A DNA stretch of 4,893 bases from a virus (taxonomy: Duplodnaviria > Heunggongvirae > Uroviricota > Caudoviricetes). A program made the translations under genes and the position numbers. Each line of letters starts with the position of its first letter. The stretch's first letter is position 1. Positions 1-4,893 of the stretch are shown in pieces. The notes below the pieces were generated by a model. That model was not told the origin of the DNA and searched no databases. It saw only the letters and a program-made list of their open reading frames with translations. The DNA lies in the IMG/VR virus record IMGVR_UViG_2693429700_000011, positions 1 to 4,893 of that record, one strand, 5' to 3'.

Positions 1-87
1 CTGTGAGTCATATTCATCCTGACTTTCCAGAACCATACGAATCGCCCGCTGACGGACTTCGGGGGAAAAACGAGTATTTTTAGTCAT
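1..87 (-). CDS. IS3-family transposase OrfA, N-terminal 29 codons (partial, runs off window)
   Basis: ATG at complement 85-87. Hand translation gives MTKNTRFSPEVRQRAIRMVLESQDEYDSQ, close to the IS629 OrfA N-terminus as I remember it (MTKNTRFSPEVRQRAVRMVLESQGEYDSQ). Confidence 0.8.
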   Translation of the reverse strand, partial: MTKNTRFSPEVRQRAIRMVLESQDEYDSQ

Positions 88-92
88 CCTGT

Positions 93-2798
93 TTACCTCT
101 TTCTCAGGGAGTTTAGTCTCCAGGATTTCCGGGGCGGTTCAAGTAGCCTTGCTGCATCGGTATTGTTTTGCAGTGCCGCGTGAATATTTTTTGCCTGTTC
201 ATACATCTCCGGACTGATAAACGTTTTCCCGGCATTTTCTTCTTGCTGGCGTTTTTGCCAGTCCTCCAGTGTCACCAGTTCCGGGCGAATTTTCCGTGCG
301 ATTTCGGTTAATTGCTCTTTTGTGCCACTGATGTTGTAAGGCAAAGATTTAGCACGTTCTTTTTTTGCCAGTTCTGGGTCTACAGTTTCAATTTGATCCA
401 GAAGCTGCTCCCGTGCTCCACTGGTTTTCAACAGAGGAGGGAGGCTTGCGTTGTATTCTTTAATACAGGCTTTCATTGCTGATGCTGTGTGTTTTTCCCC
501 CTCAGGAATACGCCGAAATTCCACCGGAAGCGAACCGTAAAGGATGCCTGTTTCTTCGGCCCCGGCACTTACAGACAGTGGCTGTATAAGAGTGCTGTTG
601 TAGCTTTCGATCCACTCTTTCATCTGCTCTGGTGTCATCAGTGCTGGCAGACTGGCATTGTGTTTTTTAATGATGGCGATCAGTTCGCTAGAAGTAGTAA
701 CCACATATTCAGGAACCGGTACCGGAATGGCATATTCATCAGCGAATTTATCCGTTTCCAGAACATAGCTGTGAATGATCCGCCCACGCAGCAGTGCATC
801 ACTTTCCTCGTTCGGAATAGTTCCGGCAATGTGCCGTCCGTGGTAATACATCAGGCTGATACGGGCATCCTTCAGCATCGTGCTGCTTATTCCGTTGGCG
901 GAGTGATAAACCTCGTTCGGGAGGTTTTCATAGCGGCCAGGCTCGAAATATGACGGCCACATGATTTCAGTTGCTACAGGAGCTGACGCTTCACCAGTTT
1001 CATCACTGCAATCACGATGCGGATCGCTGCCAGCATTCTCATTGTGCGGATGTTCAGCGCCTTCCATTTCCTCCGGATCATTTTCCTTAGCTTCAACCTG
1101 ATTCTCTTCATCGAATGTTTCCTGGTATGTTGCGTCGCCCATCACCGCACCACAGTCAGGGCAGTTATCCCCGCCAGTCTGACCGCAGGCATTGCAGACT
1201 ATTTCCGGTTTCTGTTGCACTACTGGCTCAGGTTGTTTCACATCCGGGCTGGTTTTTACAGTTTCTGGCGTGTTTTGTTTCGTTTCTGGCTGGTTCTGGT
1301 ACACAGAGTCGCGAGTCTGGATCCCCTTTACCCATTTCGGATCGTTCGGGTCGCTAATTCCGTCAACAAATTCACCACGTGATGCAGCAAGCAATTTATC
1401 GGCATCGACAGGATTTTTTGATGGAATGTTTTTCCGGGCTTCATGGAGTTCTGCCCGCAGTTTCTGATATTTCGCATCAACAGAATTTACCTGTGACTGA
1501 GCATCCAGCGGCTGCGTGTCCTGATGATGTTCAGTTGCATCCGGTTCCACTGTTTCAGCCGTTGCCTGTTTATCTGCCATTGCGCAAGATGGTTGCGGTT
1601 TTTCTTCACCATCGTGTTTTCCTTCTTCTGTTACACGCTGCGGCATTGGGGCAGAGGAACGACCGCAGGCAATATCCACGATTTCCGGATCAGGGTTGGC
1701 ATGATCGGTTTCAATCAGCACCTTGTTCAGATATTCAGTGACATGCGCAGGGATAACCTCGATCCCAATTGGTGCTTCTTTTACGGACGCAACCACGATG
1801 GCGCGGGAATAATCCAGCCCGCCAGGCATGGTGATGAATTTGTCGCGGAAAACAGAAAAGGGCGGTTTATTTTCAGAGATAATTTCCTCGACACGTTTAG
1901 CGTGTGCCGGATGAAGGTTATAAATGTCCACGTCCATTGAACGGGCCAGGACGCCAGTGGCTACGTCGCGCGCCAGTGACGTCAGATCGTGAACGAAACC
2001 TTCGCCGCGATCGGTGAGGTTCCCGCCGCCAGCATTAGCGCCGGAAGCCGTGCGCGTGATGCGTGAAACACGATTTCCTTTCATCCACTCTTTTGTCAGC
2101 AGACCACGATCGGTGTAGTCTGCGTCCAGGTATGCTTCGAAAAAAGCAGTCATCAGCCCCAGGCTTGAATTGCCTGGATTAGGGAAAACTCTGTCAGTAT
2201 CACGCACCAGTTTGTGGAGATCGCGAATTTCCAGCGGGTCGAGCAGGCTGGTTTTGTGGGAAACAGCCAGGGCAGTAACAGCTGGTAGTTCTTCAGCTCG
2301 TGCAATGTGTAATGCCTGGAGTTCGTCGCGTGAAACGTGCGTTACCGGTTTTTCGCTGCCGTGTTGAGCAAGCCAGCGAATGGGCAGCTCCTGACCGGAA
2401 ATCGGGAGTAGCATATTCTCCTCAATCTCCGTCATGTCTTCGCCATTAACATTGGTATTGTCAGTGCTGGCTGGTTTGTCCTGCGCAGAGGATGAGGGCG
2501 CGATAAATACCATTGTGATGCCATCTTCCCCGCCTTTTTTGTAACGGTTGCAGAATTCCGTATCAAATACGCCCTCTGGTGGAAGGTCATCAACAACGGG
2601 CAAATTGACGCGAACAGGTTTTTTAAAGTCATCTTCATCGTAGCCAGCATCGTCAATCGCAACAGCACCACGGGATATGGCAATGGATAATTTTTTCGCT
2701 TCAGCCCAGTAGAAACCGCCTTTAATACCGAGACGTTTTCTTACTTTGTCATTTTTTGCTTCGTAATACAGTGGGTAAACTTGTTTATCGGTGCTCAT
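93..2798 (-). CDS. recE: RecE-like exodeoxyribonuclease VIII (Rac prophage type), 3' end interrupted by IS insertion; ORF is a recE-IS chimera and probably non-functional
   Basis: 901-aa ORF from the track. ATG at complement 2796-2798 with GAGG about 11 nt upstream. Internal sequence ([45 protein letters not shown]...[27 protein letters not shown]...) matches E. coli RecE as I remember it. Synteny with racC, ydaE and kilR supports the call. The frame crosses the IS junction at 141/142, so roughly the last 15-16 residues and the TAA stop (93-95) are IS-encoded. Confidence 0.85.
105..141 (-). repeat. Terminal inverted repeat (IRL) of the IS3-family element; inner boundary approximate
   Basis: Outermost ~37 bp of the element starting with TGAACCGCCCC on the minus strand. 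The right-hand copy is outside the window, so the IR length cannot be measured here. Confidence 0.55.
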
Positions 2799-2867
2799 TG
2801 TTTTTTTAACCTCAACTTAGATTAAAATTACTGCGAGTGATGAATAAATGTCCCAGGTTCTTCACTC

Positions 2868-2900
2868 AGGCCTGCACAGTGTGCAGGCTTTCTTTTTTTT
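2868..2900 (+). terminator. Intrinsic (rho-independent) terminator-like hairpin plus T-tract, oriented on the plus strand, antisense to the racC-recE operon
   Basis: Perfect 8-bp GC-rich stem GCCTGCAC (2870-2877) / GTGCAGGC (2881-2888) with loop AGT, extendable by flanking A-T and G-U pairs. It is followed directly by TTTCTTTTTTTT (2889-2900). On the minus strand the hairpin is preceded, not followed, by the A/T run, so it is not a terminator for recE-direction transcription. Confidence 0.5.
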
Positions 2901-2928
2901 CAGATTTCACCCTTTGATTTCATTGCAA

Positions 2929-3174
2929 TCAGAGTTGCCAGAAATTCGGCTTTTTTTCTGCGGGCAGATTCTTTCCGATATGCACCAGGCACATTTTTTT
3001 GACGCCTTCGTTAAGTGTTTTAACGTTGCCTGATGGACCGTCGATATCAACCACAGTGAAAGGGGTTTCTTTATTTTCTGTTTTAATCACGTAGCCAATA
3101 CGCTTTCCTTCCAGGCTGACTTCGTGAACAATGTCATCAGTAGTAACAACAGTGGCTTCATAACTGGTAATCAT
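2929..3174 (-). CDS. racC: RacC (Rac prophage small protein), 81 aa
   Basis: Track ORF 2929-3222 contains MITSYEATVVTTDDIVHEVSLEGKRIGYVIKTENKETPFTVVDIDGPSGNVKTLNEGVKKMCLVHIGKNL..., matching RacC as I remember it. I place the start at the internal ATG (complement 3172-3174) because AAGGAG sits 6 nt upstream; the longer track ORF would translate through this RBS. Confidence 0.7.
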   Translation of the reverse strand: MITSYEATVVTTDDIVHEVSLEGKRIGYVIKTENKETPFTVVDIDGPSGNVKTLNEGVKKMCLVHIGKNLPAEKKPNFWQL

Positions 3175-3248
3175 GTTTTTCTCCTTAATTAAGGTTGAGC
3201 GAATCCCTGCCATTGCTGGCATAAACTCAGTTTCGGATAGTCAGTTAA

Positions 3249-3419
3249 TTAAAGTTCGTGTGCCATCTGGTCTTTTTCGGCACAGATTTCACTACAATAT
3301 TTTTTCATTTCCGTCGTTGGTATAACTCCACGCATGAAATGAAGTGGTCTTGTAATGATTTTGCTTTCTTCAATTTCTTTATTGCAAAGGTGATAAGCAC
3401 ATTTTATTTTCTTAGTCAT
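3249..3419 (-). CDS. ydaE: YdaE-like small Cys4 (putative zinc-binding) protein, 56 aa
   Basis: Not in the ORF track (too short). Hand translation of the minus strand gives [56 protein letters not shown] with stop TAA at complement 3249-3251. It has C-x4-C ... C-x3-C spacing and sits between racC and kilR as in Rac. The ATG overlaps the kilR stop. Confidence 0.65.
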   Translation of the reverse strand: MTKKIKCAYHLCNKEIEESKIITRPLHFMRGVIPTTEMKKYCSEICAEKDQMAHEL

Positions 3420-3640
3420 TACCATGACTCCGCCTTTACAGGTAAACCATCACGACCGAGGAAGACTCTAATCATGCAGTCAGAAATGCATGTTTTTGTA
3501 GTCAGGCTACGAATATAAAGTTTTCGCTTTTTAATATTGTTTGCCGAGGCGATATATGTCCGACCTTCATGAAGAACATAATCGCCAGGGGTCACACACT
3601 GACGTGGTATTTCATCAGTTCCGAAGTGATGAGCAATCAT
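3419..3640 (-). CDS. kilR: KilR (Rac prophage killing protein, cell-division inhibitor), 73 aa
   Basis: Track ORF 3419-3652 reads [78 protein letters not shown] place the start at the second ATG (complement 3638-3640) because GGAG lies 7 nt upstream of it; the first ATG would consume that RBS. The stop TAA (3419-3421) overlaps the ydaE ATG. Confidence 0.7.
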
Positions 3641-3661
3641 AATTATCTCCATTTTTACAAA

Positions 3662-3810
3662 TGAATTTTGTCGATGCGGTGCCTGGTGCCTCCAGGTGAC
3701 GTTAACCAGTTAACAATTAACGCCGGATACAGAGAATCCACCCATAACACTGTTTTTGGTTTTAACTGTTCCGCGTGCGCTTAGCCGCATTCACCGCATC
3801 ACAAAATTCA
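3662..3810. repeat. Long-range imperfect inverted repeat (19/20 nt arms) enclosing about 110 bp in the kilR-sieB spacer
   Basis: Left arm TGAATTTTGTCGATGCGGTG (3662-3681). Right arm 3792-3810 is CACCGCATCACAAAATTCA, whose reverse complement is TGAATTTTGTGATGCGGTG. The arms differ by one extra C. The enclosed segment contains a local hairpin CCTGG-TGCCT-CCAGG (3682-3696) and a tandem GGTGCCT GGTGCCT (3678-3691). Confidence 0.6.
3700..3722. repeat. Cluster of three (G/A)TTAAC motifs forming a CGTTAAC...TTAACG palindrome; candidate protein-binding site
   Basis: CGTTAACCAGTTAACAATTAACG: GTTAAC at 3701-3706 and 3710-3715, ATTAAC at 3716-3721. The outer 6-7 nt are reverse complements of each other. 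It lies 60-80 bp upstream of the kilR start codon on the kilR-sense side. Confidence 0.35.
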
Positions 3811-4179
3811 CTTTAAAAAGGGCGGCAGAGCAGCCACGGAGTAAAACTGATACCGCCAAACGTCACCAGAAAATTGATAACAGAGGGCGTTGCAGCGGGG
3901 TTGTCACTTAAGCGTATGGTCAACCTGACAACCCGGTGTCCTCAAGGGGAAGGAATAACCCCGCCATACTTACCGCCGCGCCATTTCGCGGAGTGCCACA
4001 ACCGGAAGTGCACGGTCGAATTAAATTTAACGACATCGTACAGTGAGACGAACTTCGCCGTGTGCTTTCGTGTTGTGTGCCTGTCTTTTTACCACTTCAG
4101 GCTCGGTGGTCTCGGCTATACCCCTACAGCGAGAGTCTGTGATAGCATTTTGATACCCTTACAGTAGAGAGTTATTAAT

Positions 4180-4713
4180 ATGCCTGATGTATTCGGCTTG
4201 TTGAGCAAGTTATTCAGTAACGAACCCTTAGAGCGCCTTATGTACATGCTTATTATCTTTGTTTTGATATTGCTCTTTATGCCTGATTCTGTGCCGGAGT
4301 ATGTTCAAGACAAAATCAGCATTCCTTATATTTACCCGGTATTCGTTTTTGCCTTTTCTTTTGTGCTGGCTATAAATCTCCAACGTTTAGCTTTATTTCT
4401 TCGTAAGATCTGGCGAAGTCACCGGAACAACACAAGAGAACAAAAAATAATCAGCCATATCAATGCAGTTATCGATTCCTTGACTGCGGGTCAGAAAAAA
4501 ATTCTCATTACGGCATTATCGAGGAACTATCCTGTGATCCATGCTGTACGCAATGATTCTGATATAAAAAAACTGGTATCTGCTAATATTTTGCTCCCCA
4601 TGGAAGGGCAACTCCTTCCCGACGAAAATCCATACTGCGTTTTGCACATAAACGATATTTTCTGGCGTGCCCTCATGCTCAGATGGAATGCCTATAGCGG
4701 TGAGATTGAGTGA
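4180..4713 (+). CDS. sieB: SieB-like superinfection exclusion / abortive-infection membrane protein (putative); start codon uncertain
   Basis: 177-aa track ORF with two predicted transmembrane helices (LMYMLIIFVLILLFM and IPYIYPVFVFAFSFVLAINL) followed by a ~110-aa soluble tail. It is divergent from kilR, at the position sieB occupies in Rac. Assignment is by synteny and topology, not remembered sequence identity. Only a weak GAGAG RBS precedes the 4180 ATG; in-frame Met21 and Met23 (4240, 4246) are alternative starts. Confidence 0.5.
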   Translation: MPDVFGLLSKLFSNEPLERLMYMLIIFVLILLFMPDSVPEYVQDKISIPYIYPVFVFAFSFVLAINLQRLALFLRKIWRSHRNNTREQKIISHINAVIDSLTAGQKKILITALSRNYPVIHAVRNDSDIKKLVSANILLPMEGQLLPDENPYCVLHINDIFWRALMLRWNAYSGEIE

Positions 4714-4714
4714 T

Positions 4715-4740
4715 CTTATTGCTCTCAAGCAATAATTTAA
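4715..4740 (+). terminator. Weak AT-rich hairpin just downstream of the sieB-like stop (possible terminator)
   Basis: TTATTGCT (4716-4723) / AGCAATAA (4728-4735), loop CTCA, followed only by TTT. The stem is AT-rich and the U-tract is short, so support is weak. Confidence 0.25.
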
Positions 4741-4817
4741 CGCTCCTTACCTGCCTCTGGTTTATTGAGAGTTTGAAACAAACTTTAGACTGGCCCCCTG
4801 AATCTCCAGACAACCAA

Positions 4818-4837
4818 TATCACTTATTTAAGTGATA
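4818..4837. promoter_or_regulatory. Palindrome inside the IS2 left end (TATCACTT-ATTT-AAGTGATA); likely the IS2 promoter/OrfA-repressor site
   Basis: Perfect 8-bp arms with a 4-bp spacer, seen directly. Attribution to IS2 transposase-promoter autoregulation by InsA is from memory of the IS2 literature. Confidence 0.5.
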
Positions 4838-4876
4838 GTCTTAATACTAGTTTTTAGACTAGTCATTGGAGAGCAG

Positions 4877-4893
4877 ATGATTGATGTCTTAGG
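4877..4893 (+). CDS. insC: IS2 OrfA (InsC-type) N-terminus, first 5 codons plus partial (runs off window)
   Basis: GGAG at 4868-4871, ATG at 4877-4879, then ATT GAT GTC TTA GG giving MIDVLG, the IS2 OrfA N-terminus as I remember it. Confidence 0.7.

Follow-up and report, generated by a model that had tools for sequence, protein, structure and literature searches.

A draft contig of a Rac-like prophage with a plain IS1203 insertion in recE and an IS2 insertion, most likely simple, beyond sieB

The Rac prophage of E. coli K-12 carries its genes in the order intR-xisR-ralR-recT-recE-racC-ydaE-kilR-sieB-ydaF-ydaG-racR, and the dicBF operon of the Qin prophage is arranged as dicA/dicC - dicBp - ydfA-ydfB-ydfC-dicF-dicB, with its transcript starting upstream of ydfA at dicBp, beside dicA. 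The locus described here resembles Rac in its insertion beside ttcA and shares its order of genes, intR through sieB. It differs from K-12 Rac in having a canonical DicF gene in place of the KilS sRNA, an IS1203 element in recE and an IS2 element after sieB. Identity to K-12 Rac DNA is 93% in central recE, 86% in the racC-kilR stretch and only 76% in the sieB module, and the RecE allele is longer than that of K-12 (1,041 versus 866 amino acids), with a distantly related nuclease domain (PDB 3H4R, 28.5 bits). The Rac-like prophages of strain ML35 and of O145:H28 are 99.3% identical over positions 132-4089, lack sieB and carry other genes past position 4089; ML35 has the same DicF, but its recE is intact.

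The window, by which we mean the whole stretch of DNA that was analyzed (4,893 bp, positions 1-4893), was found by record look-up to be the whole of contig CYAS01000122.1 from the draft E. coli assembly GCA_001283645.1. Its features are as follows.

1..141, minus strand: left (IRL) end of IS1203, an IS629-like element of the IS3 family, whose terminus TGAACCGCCCCGG ends at base 141
142..144: 3-bp target-site duplication, AGT on the plus strand and ACT on the recE sense strand
142..2798, minus strand: the first 885 codons of recE (allele of 1,041 codons), with a product identical to that of ML35 through L885
2929..3174, minus strand: racC-like gene whose C-terminus is altered by a -1 frameshift within a homopolymer
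3249..3419, minus strand: ydaE, 56-aa zinc-binding protein (PF27493 YdaE), positioned as in K-12
3419..3640, minus strand: kilR, 73-aa cell-division inhibitor (PF27398 KilR), annotated kil in relatives
3820..3871, minus strand: full-length DicF sRNA gene (Rfam RF00039, 75 bits where the gathering score is 48, covering model positions 1-52/52)
4180..4713, plus strand: sieB, 177-aa superinfection exclusion protein B (Pfam SieB, 55.7 bits)
4785: a lone T, with homology to IS-free relatives stopping at 4784 and IS2 starting at the next base
4786..4893, plus strand: left (IRL) end of IS2, starting TAGACTGGCCCC, with the insA ATG at 4877 reading toward 4893

Between the two elements the genes in window order are recE, racC-like, ydaE, kilR and sieB. 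Taken together with contig CYAS01000048.1 of the same assembly and compared with K-12 Rac, the prophage is integrated beside ttcA with intR/xisR and has the order recT-recE-racC-ydaE-kilR-sieB; the window covers the central portion of the early-left arm of this Rac-like lambdoid prophage. A preliminary description made from the window alone had read an IS629-like element on the left and IS2 on the right, orfA ends inward, and had placed IS2 72 bp past the sieB stop; the exact termini at 141 and 4786 bear out the first statement, and the stop codon at 4711-4713 with IS2 starting at 4786 confirms the second. It had missed that the window is a whole contig, the DicF gene at 3820-3871 and the cutting of recE within its reading frame. 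The shared inward facing of the two IS left ends has a chance expectation of 1 in 4 and carries no signal.

Both ends of CYAS01000122.1 fall approximately 100-140 nt inside multi-copy IS elements. Across 5,426 complete E. coli genomes, the IS1203 end was present in 3,613 and the IS2 end in 4,747, each at a median of 3 places per genome. Contig ends inside such elements are usual for short-read assemblies. The contig probably stops inside an IS at each end because the assembler was unable to extend through these repeats, and its IS-bracketed appearance is an assembly boundary; that it is an isolated prophage fragment is not shown. We consider it highly probable overall that the window is a draft contig in which IS1203 has inserted simply into recE and IS2, most likely also simply, into the spacer between sieB and a ydfB-like gene, the latter probably uncoupling the genes of the window from their promoter.

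At the left end, positions 1-141 (minus strand) are 100% identical to the IRL end of copies annotated by PGAP as "IS3-like element IS1203 family transposase", and share 93.7% identity with the IS3-family copy interrupting recE of O145 strains. A full reference copy of IS1203 is 1,310 bp long, starts with TGAACCGCCCCGG and is flanked by a 3-bp duplication. The copy at recE matches the element in its terminal inverted repeat, its left-end sequence and its orfA start, the orfA ATG lying at base 92 and reading toward base 1 and off the contig edge. By megablast, homology to recE appeared to begin at position 128, within the IS end; alignment attributed this overlap to chance similarity between CCGGGGCGGTT and CCGGGTGGTT and placed true identity from position 142.

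To identify what lies beyond this element, a hypothetical junction was built from the IS1203 right end, ACT and ML35 recE from codon 886, which predicted a 176-aa ORF. This ORF was present exactly in the protein collection, on CYAS01000048.1. Nine other left-junction ORF starts (a 182-aa ATG start and eight contig-edge starts) were absent on exact look-up; only the 176-aa ATG start exists. CYAS01000048.1 opens with the final 124 nt of IS1203 and ACT, proceeds through what remains of recE to recT, ralR, xisR, intR and ttcA, and is 99.43% identical to ML35 over 7,015 bp, through recT to zntB. The ACT that follows the IS1203 right end there (125-127) is the same as that in the window, and intact ML35 recE has a single ACT. 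Because this contig carries the IS1203 right end, ACT and recE in exact continuation, the left side has lost no sequence, which at the level of assembled sequence shows a plain IS1203 insertion without deletion; one copy would have entered recE after codon 885, duplicating ACT. As the two ends lie on different contigs, we infer a single 1.3-kb copy between the recE halves from the matching duplication and the exact continuity; the assembled part comprises 141 nt at one end and 124 nt at the other, the interior being collapsed elsewhere in the draft. Predicting a junction-spanning ORF and looking it up exactly therefore recovered the neighboring contig and settled insertion versus deletion at this side. 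The preliminary description had called the window a prophage fragment with left flanking functions likely lost and had proposed a search for intact recT with a matching target duplication beyond the left element; both were found on CYAS01000048.1, which continues recE exactly and then runs from recT to ttcA, and a left deletion is refuted.

Despite the lack of any deletion, recE is predicted to be inactivated because the nuclease motif lies beyond the IS1203 break. The called recE ORF spans 93-2798 (901 aa), its last 16 residues being read from IS1203 before a stop. The window RecE keeps the Pfam Exonuc_VIII domain and loses the PDDEXK-like DUF3799 (ML35 residues 854-1018), and in the alignment to PDB 3H4R the RPD...DVK nuclease motif falls beyond residue 890. 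The nuclease domain and the N-terminal region are thus not in one polypeptide, DUF3799/PDDEXK being encoded by the separate 176-aa ORF of CYAS01000048.1. By parting the N-terminal portion of RecE from the PD-(D/E)XK nuclease core, IS1203 would render the exonuclease inactive.

At the right end, positions 4786-4893 are 97.2% identical to the first 108 bases of the annotated K-12 IS2A and 100% identical to other IS2 copies; insC1 starts at base 92 of K-12 IS2A, which corresponds to position 4877. One of these other copies is flanked by a 5-bp duplication, AGCGA on both sides. IS2 has entered a 92-bp spacer between the convergent sieB and ydfB-like genes, approximately 21 bp past the ydfB stop, with no gene disrupted. 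The spacer of the IS2 junction would stay attached after insertion. The T at 4785 could have arrived with IS2 as an additional base at its left end, or could be a target C changed to T; a 1-bp spacer is described beside IRL in the IS2 minicircle junction, in a source that does not state whether the base is retained after insertion (PMC3299598). A simple insertion would give a right junction AAACT/CTCAATTCC... and then the ydfB-like gene: the IS2 right end ...GGGGCAAATCCA would lead into AAACT and CTCAATTCCATC... and then into the ydfB-like and DUF1391 genes, and the expected continuation past GGGGCAAATCCA is AAACTCTCAATTCC. Neither this right junction nor the contig that adjoins it was found, and no gene spanning the junction and likely to be called was identified. 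Ten guessed IS2 read-out ORFs, for which the IS2 right end was joined to AAACT and to flanks from eight relatives, were absent from the collection, which says little given the variable flank and an ORF antisense to real genes.

The main alternative is that the ydfB-like and DUF1391 genes and the repressor/cro module were lost in a deletion or rearrangement at IS2, which would have left dicF-kilR-recE detached from the remaining prophage. Only 108 nt of IS2 are on the contig, with nothing visible past them, and the T at 4785 mismatches the target in relatives, so an intact 5-bp duplication is unreadable from the left side alone. Neither IS junction was found in the 5,426 complete E. coli genomes, where no record covered at least 80% of positions 1-420 or 4640-4893, and the absence of the same IS2 junction there fits this alternative, as do the other signs of decay, the frameshifts in intR and racC. 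Against these points, the same argument proved wrong on the left side, and homology to IS-free relatives extends to 4784 with the exact IS2 terminus next, as transposition would give. Simple insertion would also be the general expectation for most IS copies in E. coli. The T agrees with the 1-bp spacer described for the left end of IS2 (PMC3299598). We therefore regard a deletion, inversion or other IS2-mediated rearrangement on this side as unlikely and a simple IS2 insertion as most likely.

What simple insertion would leave beyond IS2 can be gauged from relatives. Among ten loci examined, the identical SieB lies in lambdoid prophages that occupy three distinct sites in the chromosome, and in all ten it is followed by DUF1391, HTH repressor and cro/YdaS-type genes and by ydaT; directly past sieB one would expect a ydfB-like gene of 42 aa, then the DUF1391 gene and the HTH repressor. 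This module is of the same kind as K-12 ydaF-ydaG-racR, in a different order. The layout in these relatives is Qin-like (repressor gene, DUF1391 of the ydfA type, ydfB-like, dicF, division inhibitor), with kilR in the place of dicB and sieB antisense within the operon; in the window prophage, in contrast to Qin, IS2 lies between dicF and the genes nearer the promoter. Analogy with the Qin dicBF operon would place the early-left promoter beyond IS2, next to the repressor gene. Since the promoter should be further right, the 1.3 kb of IS2 probably uncouples dicF, kilR, ydaE, racC and recE-recT from it, which would keep the toxic division inhibitors silent. Polar silencing by IS2 is, on the Qin model, probable; counted against it are that DicF has its own terminator and that kilR may have an internal promoter. 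The preliminary description had worried that kilR might be kept without its cognate repressor. By the same analogy this concern appears weak with or without a deletion on the IS2 side, because loss of the repressor region would take the promoter as well. It is improbable, in our estimate, that IS2 has removed or relocated the immunity region or supplies outward transcription, such that, in this lineage, control of DicF and KilR no longer depends on the prophage switch.

Assembly artefact, in which the junctions are chimeric joins and no real IS lies at either site, is suggested by a short-read draft contig that ends in repeats; it is very hard to reconcile with joins exactly at known IS termini on both sides, with recE halves on separate contigs sharing the 3-bp duplication expected of IS1203, and with the presence of the same contigs in a second sample, and we judge it highly improbable. 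A mobile composite unit made of both elements and the DNA between them would explain why the recE-sieB block is bracketed by IS ends, but it can be dismissed almost entirely: IS1203 and IS2 are different insertion sequences and should not act together, as an IS3-family transposase acts on its own terminal repeats, IS1203 has its own 3-bp duplication inside recE with the recE halves continuous across it, and the block sits in normal prophage order beside attL and ttcA.

With the simple insertions retained as the preferred reading, the locus can be placed among known cases. Compared with other IS629/IS1203 and IS2 insertions in prophages, the termini, the 3-bp duplication of IS1203 and the orfA/insA start positions are all typical, and nothing is unusual. 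Several O145 strains carry an independent IS3-family insertion elsewhere in recE, in the opposite orientation. The finding is ordinary and its biology already known; it carries little biological weight, as IS insertions in E. coli cryptic prophages are routine and recE has been struck independently in other lineages.

The wider view of the preliminary description, that of a Rac-like prophage in decay, is supported by the split recE and by the frameshifts in racC and in intR, the latter on CYAS01000048.1, where a run of A8 is shortened to A7. In racC, alignment with the intact O145 and K-12 genes located the lesion to a run of seven T at 2951-2957 (plus strand) against eight in intact alleles, and ML35 carries the same frameshift. 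Relatives carry a PGAP-labeled "DicB" pseudogene of 28 codons at the equivalent of positions 3667-3750; the label was not confirmed, the translation having no evident resemblance to DicB. A match to STnc100 at 3633-3818 scored 38.2 bits, below the gathering score of 47. The DicF gene includes an intrinsic terminator hairpin (stem 3822-3837), where a terminator-like site was found on the minus strand, and the exact SieB protein occurs on 403 contigs.

The bracketing by IS elements is real at both junctions of the window, and its look of an isolated fragment is a product of the assembler's stopping point. Genes were called from the ORF listing and by direct reading; precomputed Pfam matches for Exonuc_VIII, YdaE, KilR and SieB agreed with fresh ones.

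Gene content of the window
93-2798, minus strand: recE-type ORF, 901 aa (Pfam Exonuc_VIII)
2929-3174, minus strand: racC-like gene
3249-3419, minus strand: ydaE (Pfam YdaE)
3419-3640, minus strand: kilR (Pfam KilR)
4180-4713, plus strand: sieB (Pfam SieB)

A strong terminator-like hairpin (plus strand, 2868-2900; 10 pairs, then a T run) lies between the recE start and the racC stop and opposes the direction of the genes around it.

The two IS ends reported in the preliminary description were confirmed, every detail of identity, position, orientation and the 72-bp gap from the sieB stop to the IS2 start being correct. Read as the reverse complement, bases 1-141 form the left end of an IS3-family element, with 100% identity to copies named IS1203 by PGAP. 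The designation "IS629-like" can be narrowed to IS1203, whose orfA ATG lies at base 92 and reads toward base 1. In a full reference copy, IS1203 spans 1,310 bp, opens with TGAACCGCCCCGG and shows a 3-bp duplication. At the other end, 4786-4893 aligns with the annotated K-12 IS2A starting at the first base of that element (97.2% identity) and with other IS2 copies at 100% identity, the insA ATG at 4877 reading toward the window end. The inward orientation common to both ends is a 1-in-4 coincidence. Exact look-up of the 901-aa product returned one contig, CYAS01000122.1 of the draft E. coli assembly GCA_001283645.1 (4,893 bp), over the range 1-4893, and the window is therefore the whole contig. 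Both ends are among the commonest E. coli repeats: the IS1203 end occurs in 3,613 and the IS2 end in 4,747 of 5,426 complete E. coli genomes, each at a median of three places per genome. A short-read contig that stops about 100-140 nt inside a repeat is a normal assembly outcome. Overall the biology is already known: a cryptic Rac-like prophage carrying two common IS elements, viewed through draft-assembly edge effects.

On the left, the window was compared with the near-identical prophage of E. coli ML35 (99.3% DNA identity over 132-4089), whose RecE is intact at 1,041 aa; the window product is identical to it through L885 and ends in 16 residues read from IS1203. We built the junction of a simple insertion from the IS1203 right end, a 3-bp duplication (ACT) and ML35 recE from codon 886, which predicts a 176-aa ORF starting MIWQPEFTDKTLSRKPGAVQ-LNHPDRK. 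This sequence was found exactly in the protein collection, on contig CYAS01000048.1 of the same assembly. The first 124 nt of that contig are exactly the right-hand end of IS1203; ACT and then recE follow, and ACT occurs once at the insertion site in intact recE. The contig is 99.43% identical to ML35 over 7,015 bp spanning recT, ralR, a DUF1187 gene, xisR, intR, ttcA, dbpA and zntB. Judged from these sequences, the left side is a simple IS1203 insertion. Nothing between attL and sieB is missing from this prophage arm, and the loss of flanking functions that had been proposed does not hold on this side, where recT and its neighbors continue past IS1203 with a matching duplication; for the left flank, this is the outcome that the preliminary description had specified as contradicting a deletion.

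Despite no missing DNA, RecE is inactivated. The PDDEXK-like domain (Pfam; ML35 RecE residues 854-1018) is absent from the window ORF, and the block aligning with the solved K-12 RecE nuclease (3H4R), including RPD...DVK, begins at residue 890, past the break; the insertion therefore leaves the nuclease core detached from the remaining protein. IS insertion into recE is recurrent: in several O145 strains an IS3-family element has independently entered this allele at another position, with both halves kept. In O145 RM11626-C1 (L016, 7593-8904) and sister strains, its orientation is opposite to that in the window, and the window end is 93.7% identical to this copy. Compared with K-12 RecE, the protein encoded by this allele is about 175 aa longer and its C-terminal nuclease region (ML35 RecE 886-1041) is only distantly related (3H4R, 28.5 bits), whereas the central part (window 142-975, RecE residues about 610-885) has 93% DNA identity, so recE is itself mosaic. 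Two prophages with a lambda Red-type module (Gam, RecT, YqaJ; L004 and L010, 6786-8700) share about 1.9 kb with the recE portion of the window at 94% identity. No gene is called there, and the stretch looks like what remains of recE next to a recombination module that has been exchanged.

On the right, ten loci with identical SieB were retrieved, spread over three insertion sites in the chromosome. Past sieB, each of the ten has a DUF1391 gene, an HTH repressor, a cro/YdaS-type gene and ydaT, and a 42-aa ydfB-like gene immediately follows sieB in seven; the K-12 Rac counterpart is ydaF (DUF1391), ydaG and racR. Window homology to these relatives extends to base 4784. The convergent sieB and ydfB-like genes are separated by a 92-bp spacer; IS2 lies in it, about 21 bp past the ydfB stop, and breaks no gene. 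Base 4785 is T where the relatives have C, which could be a substitution or the single spacer base that is documented beside the IS2 left end in circle formation (PMC3299598). On the second reading the spacer base would remain attached upon insertion, which was not found stated in that paper. We consider a simple IS2 insertion probable, and a deletion or rearrangement marked by IS2 unlikely. The neighboring contig on this side was not found. No junction-spanning gene is expected there, and the absence of ten guessed read-out ORFs from the protein collection carries little weight; the IS2 junction occurs in none of the 5,426 complete genomes. In the IS2-rich strain E. coli MS 119-7 (NZ_CP146653.1, 2453671-2455170), about 1.5 kb separates the segments that match window 3650-4454 and window 4640-4784, versus 186 bp in the window, a difference that points to roughly 1.3 kb inserted within sieB.

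The minus strand carries a full-length DicF sRNA gene with its own terminator hairpin at 3820-3871 (full model, 75 bits; threshold 48). It lies between kilR and sieB, and the block is therefore a Rac/Qin-type mosaic with two cell-division inhibitors, DicF and KilR. The preliminary description does not mention this gene, which is carried here by a prophage at the Rac (ttcA) site. Its position (compare window 3810-3871) is taken in K-12 Rac by the sRNA KilS (L014, 7406-7503), whose DicF-model score of 39.1 bits falls short of the threshold. KilS has the terminator hairpin in common with DicF but a different 5' part (AUUGCUGUGUGUAGUC), which weakly matches the Rfam RprA model consensus (28 bits, E 0.34); KilS looks like a paralogue of DicF whose 5' region has been exchanged. 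The same variant is present in another prophage locus (L013).

The preliminary description further raised the retention of kilR without its cognate repressor, a mechanistically weak proposal. In the Qin prophage, the dicBF transcript begins upstream of ydfA at dicBp, which adjoins dicA and is shut off by the repressor that dicA encodes. By analogy, the dicF-kilR-ydaE-racC-recE-recT transcript would begin past IS2, on the right of the DUF1391 gene. IS2 would then stand between promoter and operon with or without a deletion, and repressor loss would remove the promoter too, so kilR without its repressor is not a likely outcome. On the Qin model, silencing of the early-left arm would be more likely.

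The split recE, together with two frameshifts that could be real or homopolymer errors, fits the general remark on prophage decay in the preliminary description. racC has a -1 frameshift in an A8 run (7 bases at 2951-2957, versus 8 in intact K-12 and O145 racC) that alters the frame of its last 16 codons, and ML35 has the same lesion. On CYAS01000048.1, a 1-bp deletion in an A8 run (about 2870-2880) causes a -1 frameshift that splits the 411-aa integrase IntR, of which only a 254-aa C-terminal ORF is called. A recombination joint lies at window 4061-4089, where homology to the sieB module (K-12, L006 and L013 type) starts at 4061-4064 and that to the ML35/O145-type prophage stops at 4089.
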